Shown in pieces: positions 6,787-12,753 of a stretch of 19,476 nt of DNA. A program made the translations under genes and the position numbers. A model generated the notes under the pieces. It saw only the letters and a program-made list of their open reading frames with translations. It was not told the DNA's origin and searched no databases. Source of the DNA: a virus; UHGV virus genome UHGV-0127163; one strand, 5' to 3'. Numbering within the stretch: the first letter of the stretch is position 1; the number at the start of each line of letters is the position of its first letter.

Positions 6787-7702
6787 AAGTTGTTGGATTT
6801 TGGCTTTTATCTTCTTTGTAAGAAAGAAGGTCACACATCAAATTAACTACCTTGCTGAATTGGAAAAGGTCAGCGCCAGTCTGATGACGCCACTGGAATG
6901 CTTTATCATCTTCATCATTAAATGTCTGAGATTGAGTATTGATGCGCGAAAAATGGAAATTTTCGGTAAGAATGAAGGTCACACCGCAACCGGATAACTC
7001 CATTTTATCAGCAGTGAAACTACTACTAAGGCTATCGGCCAGTTCGCTTTGAATTGACTCATGCTCAGCTGAGTAGCGAATAATTTCCTTTTGATCTGCG
7101 TAGCGTGATAGCTGAATATAATTTCCGACAGTGAATCCTTCAAATGCATTGGCTGCACCATTGATGTAGTTATTCAGGCGTGTAGTCAGTCCATTCTTGA
7201 TATCACTGATGTTGATTGTTTCTGTTTTCACTGAACCGACAACCTTAATCAGCATTGCGCATACCATACCGGCTATTATTTTATTGGTTGTGTTGATTAC
7301 CAATAATTTCTCATCAGTGCTGTACAATGCAAGAATCAGAGTAGACTTAACAAATGCCTGTTTGCATAGATCTACTCGTACGTTATCAATAATGGCCAGT
7401 CGTTCGGCACGCTTTAATTTATTCCCGGACATATTTTCGATTGTTTGGATTCGAGAATTAGCTTCTTTCATGACGACATGTCGGGGAATTATTTTCTGAT
7501 CATGACGGATTACCATTGCGTACCCACCAGATATCGGAGTTACCAGTTCACCAGTGACAGGATTCTCTACAAAAGAGGACCGTGAAAATTCTGTTTCCCC
7601 GATTTCAGAATAAGGGAGTTCGAGAAGATGACCTTCAATAGCCTGTATACTAGGTAATGTTGCTCGGTACACAATTGCGTTACGAAATTTTGGTAATTTC
7701 AT
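6785..7702 (-). CDS. rdgC: RdgC-like recombination-associated protein
   Basis: From ATG 7702 (GAGGA SD) the product starts MKLPKFRNAIVYR…, matching the RdgC N-terminal pattern (M-x-x-F-K-N-x-x-VYR) and its ~305 aa length. The ORF-track N-terminal extension to 7903 overlaps the structured leader and is unlikely to be translated. Confidence 0.7.
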   Translation of the reverse strand: MKLPKFRNAIVYRATLPSIQAIEGHLLELPYSEIGETEFSRSSFVENPVTGELVTPISGGYAMVIRHDQKIIPRHVVMKEANSRIQTIENMSGNKLKRAERLAIIDNVRVDLCKQAFVKSTLILALYSTDEKLLVINTTNKIIAGMVCAMLIKVVGSVKTETINISDIKNGLTTRLNNYINGAANAFEGFTVGNYIQLSRYADQKEIIRYSAEHESIQSELADSLSSSFTADKMELSGCGVTFILTENFHFSRINTQSQTFNDEDDKAFQWRHQTGADLFQFSKVVNLMCDLLSYKEDKSQNPTT

Positions 7703-7740
7703 TCTATTTTCCTCTGCACAATGTATTAGTTTCTCCACAA

Positions 7741-7835
7741 AACAGAGAAGAACACCTGCGGTGGCAGCCGCCCGGATGGATTGGGTTATGAGCCCGTCGT
7801 CCGGTGATGCTCTTCTCTGTTTTGTAAAAAGAGCG
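7741..7835 (-). promoter_or_regulatory. Structured RNA element in early-left leader: boxA-like CGCTCTTTTTA followed by a 14-bp stem enclosing a ~53-nt multi-hairpin core
   Basis: On the - strand: CGCTCTTTTTA (7835-7825), then AACAGAGAAGAGCA (7821-7808) pairing with UGUUCUUCUCUGUU (7754-7741); 13 Watson-Crick pairs plus one G-U on the - strand (the same position is an A-C mismatch on the + strand). Immediately 5' of the RdgC SD. Confidence 0.4.
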
Positions 7836-8288
7836 GTACCAGCCGGAAGCAAGTGTACAAACTGGTACCGCCAAAGCAGTGGCTGTTGTGGTGGGGTTGT
7901 CACTCAGGCGTATGGTCAACCTGACAATCCGGTGTCCTCAACGGGGAAAGAGTAACCCCGCCATACTTACCGCCGCGCCATTTCGCGGATTACCACAACG
8001 CTGAGAGCACTTAGCCAGTTACGGCACCACACTTTGTCGCGGCTCCATAAATGCCCTCATCGTTGCACCCTGGTCTCTTCCCAAGCGTCAAACCGAATCG
8101 CCACGCTGGTTAGGCGTCTTATCAGCATCATCATTGACTTGCACATTCCGGCTACCTGGTTTGTTTGCCCGAGCAAGGAGTGGATTGTCCCCTTTAACGT
8201 CCCCAGACCGCTAACGACGCATGTGCCATACGCCGTGTTACAACCAACCTTTCGTTAACAACAGTCTGTTGTTTGTTCAGATAATGAT

Positions 8289-8303
8289 GCTACTAAAAGT
8301 AGC
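8289..8303. promoter_or_regulatory. Candidate OL operator: palindrome GCTACT-aaa-AGTAGC related to the OR repeats
   Basis: 15-bp site with 6-bp arms; shares CTA…AAGTAG with the 13-bp repeats at 10664-10676 and 10687-10699; a further AAAAGTAG half-site at 8318-8325. Embedded in AT-rich DNA with plausible leftward -35/-10 hexamers. Confidence 0.35.
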
Positions 8304-8538
8304 AAAAATCAACAACAAAAAGTAGAAGTGTGTATTTAATTTTTAGTTTTCTATATAACGTTATGAATTAAAAGGTTTTTCACAGATGGGGGGATGTGGT
8401 GTAGTTACGTATAGAAAATATCGAGTGTCTTTTGTTTTGGTTTAATTATTAGGTTAATTAGATAGTAATAATTTTGGGGAAAATAGTGGGAACTATGGAT
8501 ACAACGGGTCAGGAACAGTGTTATTAAGCAGGCTACGA

Positions 8539-8564
8539 GTATAAAACCCGACCTGTTGGTCGGG
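8539..8564 (-). terminator. Rho-independent terminator downstream of the ParA-like gene
   Basis: On - strand: CCCGACC-aaca-GGTCGGG (8564-8547) followed by UUUUAU (8546-8541), ~37 nt after the ParA-like stop codon (8601-8603). Confidence 0.6.
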
Positions 8565-8600
8565 CGAGAATTATGTTCGTTCTAAATCATGGTTATTGTA

Positions 8601-9686
8601 TTACAGACACTTGACTACTGTTGAAACATCAGATTCTAGTGCTTCAATTTGTGCTCTATTAGCTTGGGTCGCCATACCATAGATAGTGTAACTCTTATGC
8701 TGCAGCCTACTTAAAGGGCATCCCTCATGGTTTATTATTGCTGCAAGAGTATTACCATCTTTGACATTTTGAACTCTCTCGAAAGTAGCCACATTTGTGA
8801 ACAGATGAGGATGTGTATTTAACAGGTCATCCGTGATTCTTTTGATCTCTTCTGCATGTGATTTGAATGCTTTTGCTGCATCACTTTCATTAGTTCTTGA
8901 GCGGTTTTGTACGAAAAGGTGTAGTTCAGGTAGTTCGATAAGGTTTTGCTTTGCTTCTTTGTTGAAATCTAAGAACATTTCATCTTGTTCTGACTTGTCA
9001 ATAGACACTCCATAAATAAGTTTAACAAGGTTTTTTATTCCGCGAATTGATGCAGCATCGGCAGTGCAAGGGATAATTATTCTATTTGCCGCGACTACTC
9101 CCAATTCTGTGTAGCTGGCAAAACTTGGATTACAATCAATAAAAAATGTTTTTGCTCTGTCAGAAATGTTTTTATCGGCTTCAAAAGATGCTATTAGATC
9201 TACCAGCAAAGATCGGCTTTTCTTCCATGCTTCTTTTACTGGGGATGAGCCAATGTGAGATATTAAGCGTGAACAGATATCAAGATCGACATCACCAGGA
9301 AGAATATATAAGTTCTCTGGCATTTTTGCATTAACATCATGGGCTCGTACAAAGTAAGAAGATTCATTTCCTAAACGAGACAAAGGAGATTTGCTAAAAC
9401 GCTCCTTGATATAACCTGCGATTGTAACATTTCTGTCTCGCAATTTATTTAGATTTTCTTCCCCGGTACCATTGCCACCAAGAATAATTTCTGAAACGTT
9501 TGATTGAGGGCATGAGTCAATAACCACAACATCTTGATCCGGATGAGATATAGCAAACTCAACGGCAAGATTATATGTAAGAAAAGTTTTTCCTACACCA
9601 CCTTTGTTGTTCCATACTAAATATTTTGTATTGGTGGAAATCATATCTGCTACCCCATCTGTCGCTTCAGTACGTTCATTAATCAT
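8601..9686 (-). CDS. ParA/MinD-superfamily P-loop ATPase with ~100 aa C-terminal extension; orphan gene in the cI-to-OL interval
   Basis: Deviant Walker A NNKGGVGKT, Walker A'-like VVVIDSCPQ, Walker B-like FFIDCNPSF in translation. AGGA SD 7 nt before ATG 9686. Visibly AT-richer than flanking phage DNA; preceded by a 234 bp AT-rich spacer and followed by its own terminator. Confidence 0.75.
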   Translation of the reverse strand: MINERTEATDGVADMISTNTKYLVWNNKGGVGKTFLTYNLAVEFAISHPDQDVVVIDSCPQSNVSEIILGGNGTGEENLNKLRDRNVTIAGYIKERFSKSPLSRLGNESSYFVRAHDVNAKMPENLYILPGDVDLDICSRLISHIGSSPVKEAWKKSRSLLVDLIASFEADKNISDRAKTFFIDCNPSFASYTELGVVAANRIIIPCTADAASIRGIKNLVKLIYGVSIDKSEQDEMFLDFNKEAKQNLIELPELHLFVQNRSRTNESDAAKAFKSHAEEIKRITDDLLNTHPHLFTNVATFERVQNVKDGNTLAAIINHEGCPLSRLQHKSYTIYGMATQANRAQIEALESDVSTVVKCL

Positions 9687-9920
9687 TATCGTATCCTGTT
9701 GTATAGAATTGTCTATTATTTATGTTTTATTTTGGTTTTTTTTGTGTTAGTAACGCACCCAAAGATAACATATGGTCTTTATCTTTTCTTACTTAGGGTA
9801 ACAGCTCAGTGTTAATCCATTTTTATGGACCAATGTGCCAAATAAAATTTGTATAAAGATTTTCTATCCTTATCTTTTATCATCTGTGCTCGTTTGCTTT
9901 AACGATTGCTAGATGCCTAA

Positions 9921-10661
9921 TTAAAGTCGATTATATTTAATCGACTCATGAATCAGTGCCTTACCCATAACATAAAGCTGATCTTGCGACTTCTCATCAA
10001 TGTACCATTTCTCATAGGCGGGGTTATCCGAAAGAACAGCTAGTTTGTTGCCTTGCATTTGTAGACGTTTAACATGGAAAGTCTTACCGTAAACGAAAGA
10101 GTAAACTCCATCAGTCTGGAAGTGGCGAACGGAAATGTCGACAAACAATCGATCCCCGGAAACAAGAGTTGGGGACATACTATCTCCATTTACCGTCATA
10201 ACTTTTATATCATTCTGAGAACGGTTTCCGAAAAGAGAACGGGCATGTTCAGTTGTGAACTCAATGGCGTAGAGCACATCAACATAGTCTGAAAGCATAT
10301 AGGTCCCAGGTCCTGCGCTAACGCTAAGATCCAAAACTTCTATCCTGTATACATCGGGCTTTGTTGGATTGGGGATGCTTGCCATTTCCTTACATTCCTC
10401 TCTATCTCCAACACCATATTCTAGATATGAAGCTGATACTCCAAGAGCCAACGCAAGTTTACTCATGACAGAGACACGTGGCTTCGCTGCGCCGATTGTG
10501 TATCGACGAGCCATTTCATATGTAACGCCCACAAGACTTTTGAGTTGAGTGACAGAGATTCCTTTGATTGTCATCAATTCGTTTAGTCTCTTGGCGAAAT
10601 CTGGATACTTCTGTTCTTCTACCATAGGTAGAAGATTACTCACATCGCACGCGCTAGTCAT
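9921..10661 (-). CDS. cI: CI-like prophage repressor (XRE-type HTH + LexA/S24 peptidase autocleavage domain)
   Basis: HTH segment …ISVTQLKSLVGVTYEMARRY…; C-terminal S24 signature …VNGDSMSPTL… and downstream Lys (…FHVKRLQ…). Divergent from the cro-like gene. ATG 10661 has no SD and abuts operator repeats, consistent with a leaderless pRM-type transcript; ORF-track start at 10682 is TTG. Confidence 0.8.
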   Translation of the reverse strand: MTSACDVSNLLPMVEEQKYPDFAKRLNELMTIKGISVTQLKSLVGVTYEMARRYTIGAAKPRVSVMSKLALALGVSASYLEYGVGDREECKEMASIPNPTKPDVYRIEVLDLSVSAGPGTYMLSDYVDVLYAIEFTTEHARSLFGNRSQNDIKVMTVNGDSMSPTLVSGDRLFVDISVRHFQTDGVYSFVYGKTFHVKRLQMQGNKLAVLSDNPAYEKWYIDEKSQDQLYVMGKALIHESIKYNRL

Positions 10662-10663
10662 TT

Positions 10664-10723
10664 CTATTTTAAGTAGTTGCAATTTGCTATTTTAAGTAGC
10701 ATCATCCCTCTGAATTTCAGAGG
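10664..10723. promoter_or_regulatory. OR-like operator/promoter region: two 13-bp direct repeats plus a 17-bp palindrome overlapping the cro SD
   Basis: CTATTTTAAGTAG at 10664-10676 and 10687-10699 (23 bp centre to centre); CCTCTGAA-t-TTCAGAGG at 10707-10723; cro SD AGGAGAAAGG at 10721-10730. Confidence 0.45.
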
Positions 10724-10731
10724 AGAAAGGT

Positions 10732-10971
10732 ATGTCATCTCAAAACTACACAGAGAAAGCAGTAAAGGCTGCGGGAAAATCTTTATCTGAAGTAGCCCGT
10801 CGCTTTGGTTTTAAGTCCACTCAATCCGTCGCCAATTGGGTAATTAACAATCAAGTCCCGTCAGAACGGGTTTTACAACTTTGTGAGTTGGGAAACTGGT
10901 CCGTGACCCCTCATGAACTGCGTCCTGATATTTACCCCAATCCAAATGATGGATTACCTGAGTGCTATTAA
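10732..10971 (+). CDS. cro: Cro-like HTH regulator (DicC/YdaS family)
   Basis: 79 aa, strong SD, divergent from cI; …GKSLSEVARRFGFKSTQSVANWV…VP..R…LRPDIY pattern resembles DicC/YdaS-type Cro proteins. Confidence 0.7.
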   Translation: MSSQNYTEKAVKAAGKSLSEVARRFGFKSTQSVANWVINNQVPSERVLQLCELGNWSVTPHELRPDIYPNPNDGLPECY

Positions 10972-11608
10972 AAAGTTAGCGGTTCAACTGCGTAAACGTA
11001 ACCACAGAAACGAGGAATTAACCGTGGGTAAAGAACCTGAATGGAAAGTTGATAAGCAACCAGCATGGCTGGTGGCAGCAATACGAAGAACGATTGCTGA
11101 TTTACCTCATGGCTATGAGGAAGCAGCGGAAATTCTTGGTTTGTATAAATCTGATGATATCACCCCAGCGAAAGATCAATTGCATAACAGACTGCGTAGC
11201 GGTGGGGATCAAATTTTTCCACTTGAGTGGGCCATGGTTTTACAGGATGCCAGTGGTACCAGGCATGTAACGGATGCGATAGCGCGTCGTAGTAATGGGG
11301 GGTTTGTGCCGCTGGTGGACATTGATGACATTGACAATGGTGACATTAATCAGCGGCTGATGGAGTCAATAGAATGGATTGGCAAGCATTCCCAGTACTT
11401 ACGCAAGGCAACTGCTGATGGAGTTATTGACCAGGCTGAGCGTGAGCAAATCGAAGAGAACAGCTACCAAGTAATGGCGAAGTGGCAGGAGCATTTAACA
11501 CTGTTATTTCGTGTTTTTTGTGCGCCGGAAAAGAGTAACGCCCGCGAGTGTGCAGCTCCGGGCGTCGTGGCGTCGATTGCTTCTGGTTGTGGAGAAACTA
11601 ACGCATGA
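10946..11608 (+). CDS. Hypothetical early-right protein in the cII position (possibly YdaT-like); start uncertain
   Basis: ORF overlapping the 3' end of cro in another frame; candidate starts ATG 10946 (no SD) or GTG 11024 (GAGGA SD). Family not securely recognised. Confidence 0.45.
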   Translation: MMDYLSAIKKLAVQLRKRNHRNEELTVGKEPEWKVDKQPAWLVAAIRRTIADLPHGYEEAAEILGLYKSDDITPAKDQLHNRLRSGGDQIFPLEWAMVLQDASGTRHVTDAIARRSNGGFVPLVDIDDIDNGDINQRLMESIEWIGKHSQYLRKATADGVIDQAEREQIEENSYQVMAKWQEHLTLLFRVFCAPEKSNARECAAPGVVASIASGCGETNA

Positions 11609-11933
11609 ATAGTTTAACGGCAAATAACCGTTTGTCGCAACAGCTGGTGGTCAGCGTCGCTGAACACCTGTTGTTACGGCATGAATGCAGATTACCAAAT
11701 CACCTGGCTGTAAGTAACCACAGAGAACTTTACCTGACTGTGGGGGGCGAGTTGTGCAGGAACTTAACCGCTGGTTTCGTGACGGAAGAGGGCTTTATGT
11801 CCATGTTATTCGTTGGGAGCCAGAAACACAGCGCGTTATCTATCTTCGCAAAGACTACCCGCATGAGTGCTTTAGTCCTTTGTGGAAATTCAGGCGTGAT
11901 TTTGTTGAGTGTGAAGGACCACCAGCATATTGA
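11605..11933 (+). pseudogene. Small gene split between frame 1 (11605-~11748) and frame 3 (~11748-11933) at a G6 run: frameshift mutation, homopolymer sequencing error, or -1 frameshift site
   Basis: ATG 11605 is coupled to the upstream stop (ATGA). After the G6 run (11742-11747) only frame 3 reads as protein-like (RVVQELNRWFRDGRGLYVHVIRWEPETQRVIYLRKDYPHECFSPLWKFRRDFVECEGPPAY, stop 11931-11933); frame 1 turns Ser/Ala/Gly-rich and low-complexity. Frame 3 is closed upstream by TAA 11715-11717. Confidence 0.35.
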
Positions 11934-12021
11934 TTCTGCAATTCCGGGACGTTACACTGCTCAGGCACCTTATAAAGCGGGTGCCGGGGGTCGCAGCCCG
12001 GAATTGTCAACGGCGATATAT

Positions 12022-12041
12022 GACGCGCCAGCGTCTTTTTT
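12022..12041 (+). terminator. Candidate weak intrinsic terminator (tR1-like) upstream of rha
   Basis: GACGC-gcca-GCGTC followed by TTTTTT (12036-12041); lies inside the computed 382-aa ORF, ~90 nt after the frame-3 stop. Confidence 0.4.
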
Positions 12042-12207
12042 ATCGTCCGCGCTCACGCACGCCAGAATTATGGTGGGCTGGGCAGGGGAGCCGAAAGGCT
12101 CGCCGGTCTCCGTTGACGCCGGTACTGCGAACCCTGTTCAGTCTGCCACCAGTGAGTTTCGCAGCTCCGGTGGTGGAAGTTTTCCACAGTCAACGGAGGC
12201 TGCCATC

Positions 12208-12753
12208 ATGGCTACGATCCCAACCCTCACTCAACCTGAAATTGCCATCGTTGATGGTCAGGCTGTTACTTCATCCCTGGCTGTTGCCAACTTCTTCTCC
12301 AAACGTCATGACGATGTACTGAAAAAGATCCGCACGCTTGAATGCTCTGCATCATTCACTTCCCGCAATTTTTCGGTGAGTGATTACACCGATTGCACAG
12401 GCCGCAAACTACCTTGCTATCAAATAACCCGCGACGGCTTTGCGTTTCTTGCTATGGGTTTCACGGGTAAACGTGCTGCCCAGTTCAAAGAGGCATACAT
12501 CAATGCCTTTAACCAGATGGAGAAACAGCTTTCAAATCCCTCTGTACTGAGCGACGTTGCACATAACGCCAGCGTTCTCTATTCCTACATTTCATCAATT
12601 CATCAGGTCTGGCTGCAGCAGCTTTATCCCATGTTGGCAAAAGCCGAATCCCCGCTGGCTGTAAGTCTGTATGACCGCATCAACGACGCGGCGCTACTGG
12701 CCAGTCTCATAAATTTGTCGCTGAACCCTTCAGAGGTAAGGGGGCGCAAATGA
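12208..12753 (+). CDS. rha: Rha-family phage regulatory protein
   Basis: From ATG 12208 (GGAGG SD at 12195-12199) the product begins MATIPTLTQPEIAIVDGQAVTSSLAVANFFSKRHDDVLKKIRTL…, matching the N-terminal Rha domain (…KRHDxVLrxI…). The 382-aa ORF-track version is judged an artefactual upstream extension. Confidence 0.65.
   Translation: MATIPTLTQPEIAIVDGQAVTSSLAVANFFSKRHDDVLKKIRTLECSASFTSRNFSVSDYTDCTGRKLPCYQITRDGFAFLAMGFTGKRAAQFKEAYINAFNQMEKQLSNPSVLSDVAHNASVLYSYISSIHQVWLQQLYPMLAKAESPLAVSLYDRINDAALLASLINLSLNPSEVRGRK

Follow-up and report, generated by a model that had tools for sequence, protein, structure and literature searches.

The 19,476-nucleotide stretch of viral DNA analysed in this study (UHGV-0127163, hereafter the window) very probably carries the lysis-lysogeny switch of an Escherichia coli lambdoid prophage, with a CI repressor related to that of HK022, a Cro of the YdaS type, CI operators at both OR and OL, a ParA-like cargo gene and a hairpin at cro. 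The architecture of these sequences, its conservation among relatives and the match between recognition helix and operator were directly observed, and from them we infer operator binding, promoter activity, transcription start sites and looping.

In the proposed mechanism, CI dimers would recognise a 13-bp dyad, CTACTT-W-AAGTAG. The sites OR2 and OR1 would overlie a promoter pR (TTGCAA-17-CATCAT) reading rightward into cro, and OL2 and OL1 would overlie a promoter pL (TTGATT-17-CATCAT) reading leftward; cooperative binding of CI at each pair would shut off both pR and pL in the lysogen, and an OL-OR loop of ~2.4 kb probably reinforces this repression. OR2 abuts the predicted -35 hexamer (ATGACT, 10661-56) of a weak promoter pRM, with its -10 hexamer TAATCT at 10638-33, thus CI bound at OR2 could activate transcription of cI. 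Transcription from pRM is predicted to begin at the first base of the ATG 10625, so that the cI mRNA would be leaderless, and a weaker dyad, OR3, centred on the pRM start would give negative autoregulation. The ParA-like gene would occupy a variable cargo slot between cI and OL, with a promoter-like site and a terminator of its own. The coordinates of the features are collected in Table 1.

Table 1. Genes, putative operators and predicted promoter elements of the switch region, numbered from the first nucleotide of the window
Feature	Position	Strand	Description
Predicted pL -10	8284-8289	-	CATCAT; CA..AT in all relatives, 17 bp from TTGATT
OL1	8290-8302		CTACTAAAAGTAG; perfect dyad in pL spacer
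Predicted pL -35	8307-8312	-	TTGATT between OL2 and OL1; invariant in relatives
OL2	8313-8325		CAACAAAAAGTAG; right half consensus, left half degenerate; 23 bp from OL1
Terminator-like hairpin	8546-8565	-	After ParA-like gene
ParA/MinD-type P-loop ATPase gene	8601-9686	-	Cargo between cI and OL
cI	9921-10625	-	HTH and S24 LexA-like autopeptidase; alternative in-frame start 10661
Candidate OR3	10619-10631		CTACCATAGGTAG; core of 21-bp perfect palindrome 10615-10635
Predicted pRM -10	10633-10638	-	TAATCT; TA..CT conserved; A 10625 is the 8th nt downstream
Predicted pRM -35	10656-10661	-	ATGACT; ATGAC invariant in 26 distinct sequences; contains ATG 10661
OR2	10664-10676		CTATTTTAAGTAG; abuts pRM -35, upstream of pR -35
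Predicted pR -35	10677-10682	+	TTGCAA; TTG conserved
OR1	10687-10699		CTATTTTAAGTAG; in pR spacer
Predicted pR -10	10700-10705	+	CATCAT; most relatives CATTAT, some TATTAT
Hairpin	10707-10723	+	3' arm holds AGG of cro Shine-Dalgarno (SD) AGGAG (10721-10725)
cro	10732-10971	+	79-aa HTH protein, YdaS family

Gene order and limits of the immunity segment

The window is 99.9% identical to a prophage of E. coli STEC17-183 that is integrated beside yecN and cmoA. Its genes are ordered int, xis, rdgC, a 580-nt gap without annotated gene, a ParA family gene, cI, cro and ymfL, and the region right of cro holds ymfL (CII-like), ash/Rha, replication genes and Q. These roles were backed by Pfam and PHROGs, with HTH_3 and Peptidase_S24 for cI, a YdaS-family HTH for cro and a CII-like assignment for YmfL. 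Apart from the Pfam matches, CI has the motifs SVSA-GPG, GDSM and HVKR with the Ala-Gly site and the Ser/Lys residues, and its predicted recognition helix is YEMARRY. The cI and cro genes are divergent, and three dyads lie between them or at their starts.

The heteroimmune phages Ayreon, mEp460 and cdtI are similar to the window up to ~8247, with the annotated promoter of Ayreon itself just past this break on the Ayreon side, and similarity to other lambdoid phages is back at 11001, 30 bp past the cro stop. Given these two breaks, the predicted immunity-specific segment spans ~8248-11000 and comprises OL/pL, the ParA-like gene, cI, OR and cro; together with co-inheritance of OL and cI-cro around diverged cargo in E. 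coli, the breaks indicate its exchange as a unit between heteroimmune phages. The boundary at 11001 falls between two candidate starts of the CII-like gene ymfL, the frame of which is open from an ATG at 10913 (+ strand, to 11608) overlapping the end of cro, and the PGAP start of which is at 11024.

Two Rfam matches, both above the gathering score, were found inside the ash/Rha ORF (11605-12753), namely isrK at 11965-12041 (+ strand, 58.7 bits) and C4 antisense RNA at 12066-12153 (+ strand, 78.8 bits), which by analogy with the immI region of P1/P7 suggests a second, RNA-based control layer on this antirepressor-like gene. An Rfam scan of 7600-11200 returned no family at E <= 1, and the lambda CII-type pRE site TTGC-N6-TTGC was not enriched, with none near the cro/ymfL junction.

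A probable operator family common to OR and OL

The sequence-only reading had proposed that an operator family is shared between OR and a distant palindrome resembling OL. The elements that it described were all found in place: 13-bp direct repeats CTATTTTAAGTAG at 10664-10676 and 10687-10699, the first of them 3 bp from an in-frame ATG (10661-10659), a palindrome GCTACTAAAAGTAGC at 8289-8303 and a half-site AAAAGTAG at 8318-8325. The OR repeat extends to 16 nt, TT(T/G)CTATTTTAAGTAG, at 94% identity, each 13-mer being itself an imperfect dyad, CTAYTT-W-AAGTAG, and in a palindrome scan the 8289-8303 palindrome proved perfect with 7-bp arms over 8288-8304.

When the motif was scanned over the whole window, as that reading had suggested, CTAYT-N3-AGTAG occurred exactly at three places, compared with 0.037 expected. 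Allowing up to one mismatch returned the same three places only (8290, 10664 and 10687), that is, six strand-hits against 1.0 expected, a number reached in none of 200 shuffles. With up to two mismatches the count was at background (14 against 13.6 expected) and extra sites such as 10783 and 8776 are not callable, thus OL2 at 8313-8325 and OR3 at 10619-10631 are called from spacing and comparison.

Within 7900-11100, the longest inverted repeat is one of 47 nt with 79% complementarity, formed by 8284-8330 and 10659-10705. OL and OR are alike in having two sites 23 bp apart, a TTG-type -35 hexamer between them and a CATCAT -10 hexamer, the hexamers being 17 bp apart. In the sense of transcription, pL reads OL2 (8325-8313), TTGATT, 4 nt, OL1 (8302-8290) and CATCAT, and pR reads OR2 (10664-76), TTGCAA, 4 nt, OR1 (10687-99) and CATCAT. 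The 47-nt inverted repeat, the equal spacing and the same promoter hexamers bear out the proposed operator family. The promoter hexamers fit the consensus at only 4 of 6 positions, and a generic promoter scan did not call them.

The half-site at 8318-8325 turned out to be the right, good half of a full second site, OL2, at which relatives have CTACAAAAAGTAG or CTACCAAAAGTAG with the same spacing. In nearly all variants an A is found 7-8 nt downstream of the pL -10 hexamer. A third OL site at a spacing like that of OR3 (~8351-8363) has four mismatches and was rejected. TAGCAT at 10697-10702 was likewise rejected as the -10 hexamer of pR, because it would be separated from TTGCAA by a 14-bp spacer and is not conserved at pL in its sixth position.

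Conservation of the switch among relatives

When IMG/VR was scanned for exact matches to a pair of sites spaced by 23 bp, 55 loci were recovered. The sites adjoin a cI homolog in 54 of them, most of which also have a cro homolog; the other one (L063) is truncated immediately left of OR. Because these loci were chosen by the OR pattern, only OL, OR3 and the promoter features provide independent evidence.

The loci fall into groups by their similarity to the window: in group A cI is 100% identical and the ParA-like gene is the same; in group B cI is 97% identical and the ParA-like gene is only 23% identical at the protein level; in group C cI is 96.6% identical and the ParA-like gene is absent; in group D cI is 83-84% identical; in group E cI is 37-45% identical overall and cro 70-86%; and in group F cI is about 30% identical and a cro homolog is absent. 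A second cluster of sites was found downstream of cI in all 37 loci that have more than 2 kb left of cI, and in groups A-E the sites of this OL cluster are again 23 bp apart and are accompanied by an invariant TTGATT and by CA..AT as the second hexamer. Outside OR and OL, one exact site occurs in 541 kb, and the 18 sites with one mismatch correspond to the chance rate. The placement of OL/pL at ~8290 in the earlier reading is thus upheld by an inverted-repeat copy of OR and by an OL pair in 37 of the 37 relatives with enough flank.

In E. coli, 71 genomes carry the full module, and about 133 further genomes have OL and cI-cro at 93% identity with a gene between them that is beyond megablast detection; the IMG/VR group matching these genomes has a ParA-like protein 23% identical to that of the window. 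Among the 5,426 complete E. coli genomes that were searched, at least 200 carry this immunity type, O145:H28 strains among them, and it is also present in IMG/VR prophages with more distant cI and in a Providencia phage.

The protein predicted to read the operators

All phages with the motif share the predicted helix Y-E-M-(A/I/V)-R-R-Y. Among deposited phage genomes, only two uncharacterised records have this operator family, an unverified contig of an Stx phage and the Providencia phage PSTRCR_117lys, and both have the helix. At the same positions, HK022 and the locus L007 have the helix PKA(I/V)SKW and dyads with GAAC/GTAC, and L006 has the dyad TAAC..GTTA and HK639 the dyad ATAAC..GTTAT, both likewise with a helix other than that of the motif-bearing phages. 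Helix and operator sequence therefore change together across relatives. The cI homologs of Salmonella phage S9-5 and Klebsiella phage Mulock go with other operators and were placed outside this specificity group. Since group F keeps both the operators and the CI helix without a cro homolog, CI is predicted to be the common reader of the operators; by analogy with lambda, Cro probably binds the same sites.

The start of cI, a predicted pRM and a likely third operator

The palindrome around the candidate OR3 reads TCTTCTACC-ATA-GGTAGAAGA (palindrome scan), and its core CTACCATAGGTAG departs from the operator by one symmetric change. The dyad, CTACC-TAT-GGTAG, has its centre at the first base of the cI start codon (10625), and the palindrome is conserved, also in group F where it is non-coding; we regard it as a likely third operator. 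In HK022, L006 and L007, whose CI proteins all start MV.., the respective phage's own operator is likewise centred on the cI ATG.

Among 26 distinct OR sequences of groups A-E, AAAATAGAAATGAC is invariant, the next 17 nt vary freely and a TA..CT hexamer follows. Group F has ATGACG-17-TAAAAT at the place of pRM, even with a cI ATG that is placed past OR3, further downstream. Because group F keeps these hexamers with its ATG elsewhere, ATGAC and TA..CT appear to be conserved as promoter elements and not as codons, and the ATG at 10661 is most likely the -35 hexamer of pRM. In the predicted pRM, ATGACT-17-TAATCT, the start codon begins at the 8th nucleotide past the -10 hexamer, and L006 and L007 share this geometry. 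An SD sequence is found at neither cI ATG (10661 or 10625); a leaderless cI mRNA is likely with either, and more probably starts at the A of the ATG 10625. Against this proposed start, the centre of OR2 would be at -45 from it, compared with -42 for the corresponding operator centre of lambda.

Alternatively, cI might start leaderless at the ATG 10661, as the sequence-only reading had it, with a -10 hexamer inside the first repeat and an OR of two sites only. The ATG 10661 is indeed invariant, no variant of groups A-E has a stop in the 12 in-frame codons between 10661 and 10625, some differences between variants are synonymous, with most of those in the loci L028 and L011 falling at third positions of codons, a promoter-like match TTAAAA-18-TAAAAT lies at 10695-10666, and the Providencia phage is annotated with the long form of cI. 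However, TAAAAT ends merely 4 nt before A 10661, and its T1 is the variable operator centre in relatives. Both operators would lie over the -10 and -35 hexamers of such a promoter, which would therefore be shut off in the lysogen and could not maintain CI. Moreover, group F keeps ATGAC-17-TAAAAT, yet has an in-frame stop and its cI ATG further downstream, the N-terminal domain varies far more in the six residues that follow MT than elsewhere, and cI starts at an MV.. ATG in HK022, L006, L007 and the PGAP annotation. A start at 10661 is thus unlikely, and what probably survives of the earlier proposal is the leaderless message itself, whereas its ATG 10661 is made doubtful by the fit to pRM -35 and by the MV.. 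starts of HK022, L006 and L007.

Annotation of the cI start differs in the family, PGAP using the ATG of MVEEQ (10625) and the Providencia phage record an upstream MT.. ATG. At the other end of the gene, a palindrome with 9-bp arms, AGTCGATTA-N4-TAATCGACT (9925-9946, - strand), overlaps the final codons of cI, with TTTAATT after it, and possibly acts as a weak terminator between cI and the ParA-like gene.

A hairpin over the cro Shine-Dalgarno sequence

The 17-bp palindrome CCTCTGAA-T-TTCAGAGG, which is present at 10707-10723 as described earlier, had been proposed as a possible site of another regulator, and this proposal was not sustained by comparison. Among phages with the same operators and Cro, its sequence varies and its pairing is kept, with the stems CCTCTGA/TCAGAGG, CCTCTAC/GTAGAGG, CCTGTGA/TCACAGG, CCTATGA/TCATAGG and CCTTGG/CCAAGG and with loops of 1-8 nt across variants; AGG of the cro SD closes the 3' arm in every case, and the SD is the sole fixed part. 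In the alignment, 89.8% of cells are paired and 4 of 7 pairs change on both sides, values matched by none of 500 shuffles. The RNA of + sense is at least 4 kcal/mol more stable than that of - sense in five of the six imperfect variants; for four of these five the sole departure from a perfect stem is one G-U pair, and G-U pairs occur only in the + sense. Because pairing is conserved while the sequence changes, with compensation and variable loops, we interpret 10707-10723 as a nucleic-acid hairpin, predicted to pair an anti-SD with the cro SD, and not as the binding site of a dimer.

It is very improbable that the palindrome is instead a DNA site of a second regulator, either Cro or the protein at the CII position. 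In favour of such a site, it is a perfect palindrome spanning -6 to +12 of predicted pR, and symmetric changes might in principle mirror a co-evolving dimeric protein. However, its sequence differs among phages whose Cro proteins are 70-100% identical, the distance between the arms ranges from 1 to 8 nt, a variation that a dimer site would not tolerate, and the preference for folding in the + sense and the pairs changed on both sides also argue for a hairpin. A hairpin in a leftward transcript of the pRE type was disfavoured by the same difference of at least 4 kcal/mol in five of six variants.

The 5' arm of the hairpin starts 0-2 nt past the conserved -10 hexamer of pR and lies between that hexamer and the predicted pR start at G10712; the 7th or 8th nucleotide past the hexamer is always a purine after a pyrimidine, from which the start at G10712 (or A10713) is predicted. 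With a start at G10712, pR transcripts would lack the 5' arm. In 12 of 14 variants, the SD is predicted to be more accessible when the leader is initiated at pR. Our working explanation is fold-back inhibition of the kind seen in IS10/IS50, whereby the cro SD would be closable in read-through RNA only.

Fold-back inhibition of IS10 and IS50 transposase translation was reportedly described by Davis, Simons and Kleckner in 1985 and by Krebs and Reznikoff in 1986. The likeness would be in the geometry: an anti-SD upstream of the SD forms a hairpin with it, transcription from the promoter of the element itself begins within that hairpin, and so only transcripts reading through are silenced. The differences are that the setting here is a phage lysis-lysogeny switch and not a transposase and that the transcription start is a prediction; the mechanisms are compared as analogous, and no homology is implied.

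A broader idea, which we put forward tentatively and with more doubt than confidence, is that the cro hairpin and the OR3 palindrome insulate both sides of the switch translationally, both palindromes being bisected by the respective gene's own promoter. The palindromes at 10707-10723 and 10615-10635 would then fold only in read-through RNAs from outside, with the cI AUG sitting in the loop of the OR3 palindrome RNA. No Cro or CI would be made from stray transcripts across OR, whereas messages initiated at pR or pRM would be without the 5' arm and would be translated. If true, this would be the fold-back logic of IS10 applied to a phage lysis-lysogeny switch.

The pL leader

The pL leader (7703-8283) is gene-free, and no N-like ORF was found within it. 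At ~8145-8240 (- strand) the leader aligns partly with HK022 putL and with the putL-like RNA of HK639 (ACGGCG..CATGCGTCG..GCGG..GGCAAT); a fourth row, which came from an unoriented locus, is disregarded in this alignment. The fold of the leader was no better than that of shuffled sequence (z-score -0.49), and the leader had no Rfam match. RNA-mediated antitermination from the pL leader may take the place of N. Close to the predicted pL start (near A8277), at 8257-8273 (- strand; ~+5 to +21 of the predicted pL RNA), lies another perfect 17-bp palindrome, AACAACAG-T-CTGTTGTT, within the immunity-specific segment right of the ~8247 break and, among relatives, in group A only; it is a possible 5' stem-loop.

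The ParA-like gene and the cargo slot

The earlier reading had placed the ParA-like gene inside the immunity region, and the homology breaks at ~8247 and 11001 and the variable cargo between cI and OL in relatives agree with it. The comparative test in relatives thus locates both OL/pL at ~8290 and the ParA-like gene in a cargo slot. In relatives the cI-OL gap ranges from about 100 bp to 1.9 kb, and the slot contains nothing, ParA-like ATPases, small-protein pairs or a kinase-phosphatase-like pair. The last of these, in L026 (~8490-10370 of the oriented locus), consists of Ser/Thr kinase-like and PP2C-type phosphatase-like proteins, with motifs judged by eye; the small-protein pairs, in L012, L025 and L059, have one member with a hydrophobic C-terminal stretch.

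The ParA-like gene of the window has its own promoter-like site at 9688-9715, and its protein has the deviant Walker A motif KGGVGKT. As to a partition function, the NF041546 match scored 48.9 bits against an NCBIfam equivalog cut-off of 180, and no adjacent ParB-like ORF was found. A known defence gene was not accepted either, the PADLOC search giving a marginal Drt5 match only (E = 0.007).

That the palindrome at 8289-8303 is a centromere-like or auto-regulatory site of the ParA-like gene, with its likeness to OR a coincidence, is scarcely credible: it does lie ~300 bp downstream of that gene, and ParA systems often have palindromic sites nearby, but the same paired sites and hexamers stand ~105 bp downstream of cI in relatives without any cargo gene and flank quite different cargo in others, a terminator separates the gene from the palindrome, and the 47-nt match of OL to OR takes in the promoter elements.

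Comparison with HK022 and lambda

The deposited phage genome with the closest cI is HK639 (58% identity), and the closest studied relative is HK022. CI of HK022 loops between OL and OR (PMC8053113). Comparison was made with the immunity region of HK022 (GenBank X16093; Carlson and Little 1993, as cited in PMC8053113). The two systems have in common homologous CI proteins (43% identity), dyad operators 23-24 bp apart at OR and OL, a third OR site centred on the cI ATG (the HK022 dyad being TGAACTT-A-TGGTTCA) and apparently the lack of an N gene, the pL leader here aligning in part with putL. They differ in recognition helix (PKAISKW in HK022, YEMARRY here) and half-site (GAAC/GTAC against CTAC), in the OR2-OR3 distance (33 bp against 45 bp here), in the promoter element between OR2 and OR1 (the -10 hexamer of pR in HK022, the -35 hexamer here), in the family of Cro, and in the OL-OR distance (~0.7 kb against 2.4 kb here, where the cargo gene adds to it).

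Lambda has divergent cI and cro genes, operator pairs over pR and pL with one operator abutting the -35 hexamer of pRM, a leaderless cI mRNA from pRM and a repressor cleavable in the manner of LexA; its OL and OR are ~2.4 kb apart, and rexAB, expressed in the lysogen, lies between cI and OL. The window resembles lambda in its divergent cI/cro, its operator pairs over the predicted pR and pL, the single operator at pRM -35, the likely leaderless cI mRNA, the LexA-like repressor, the OL-OR distance of ~2.4 kb and the cargo in the position of rexAB. Unlike in lambda, the operators are of 13 bp and not 17 bp and have no sequence similarity to those of lambda, only two clear OL sites are present, OR3 lies over the pRM start and not over the -10 to -35 region, and the cargo is a ParA-like ATPase and not RexAB.

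Implications

The architecture is that of an ordinary lambdoid switch, and its operator code belongs to an immunity type that has apparently not been studied before. For that immunity type, the present analysis defines the operator sequence CTACTT-W-AAGTAG, the promoter layout and the boundaries of the module, which can serve immunity typing and the correction of gene-start and regulatory annotation, and repressor and operator together offer an orthogonal pair ready for use. ParA-like ATPases, a kinase-phosphatase-like pair and small membrane proteins are marked, by their place in the slot between cI and OL, as candidate lysogen-expressed exclusion or defence genes. The sole feature of possible wider interest is the geometry of the hairpin, which suggests that cro may be translationally insulated.
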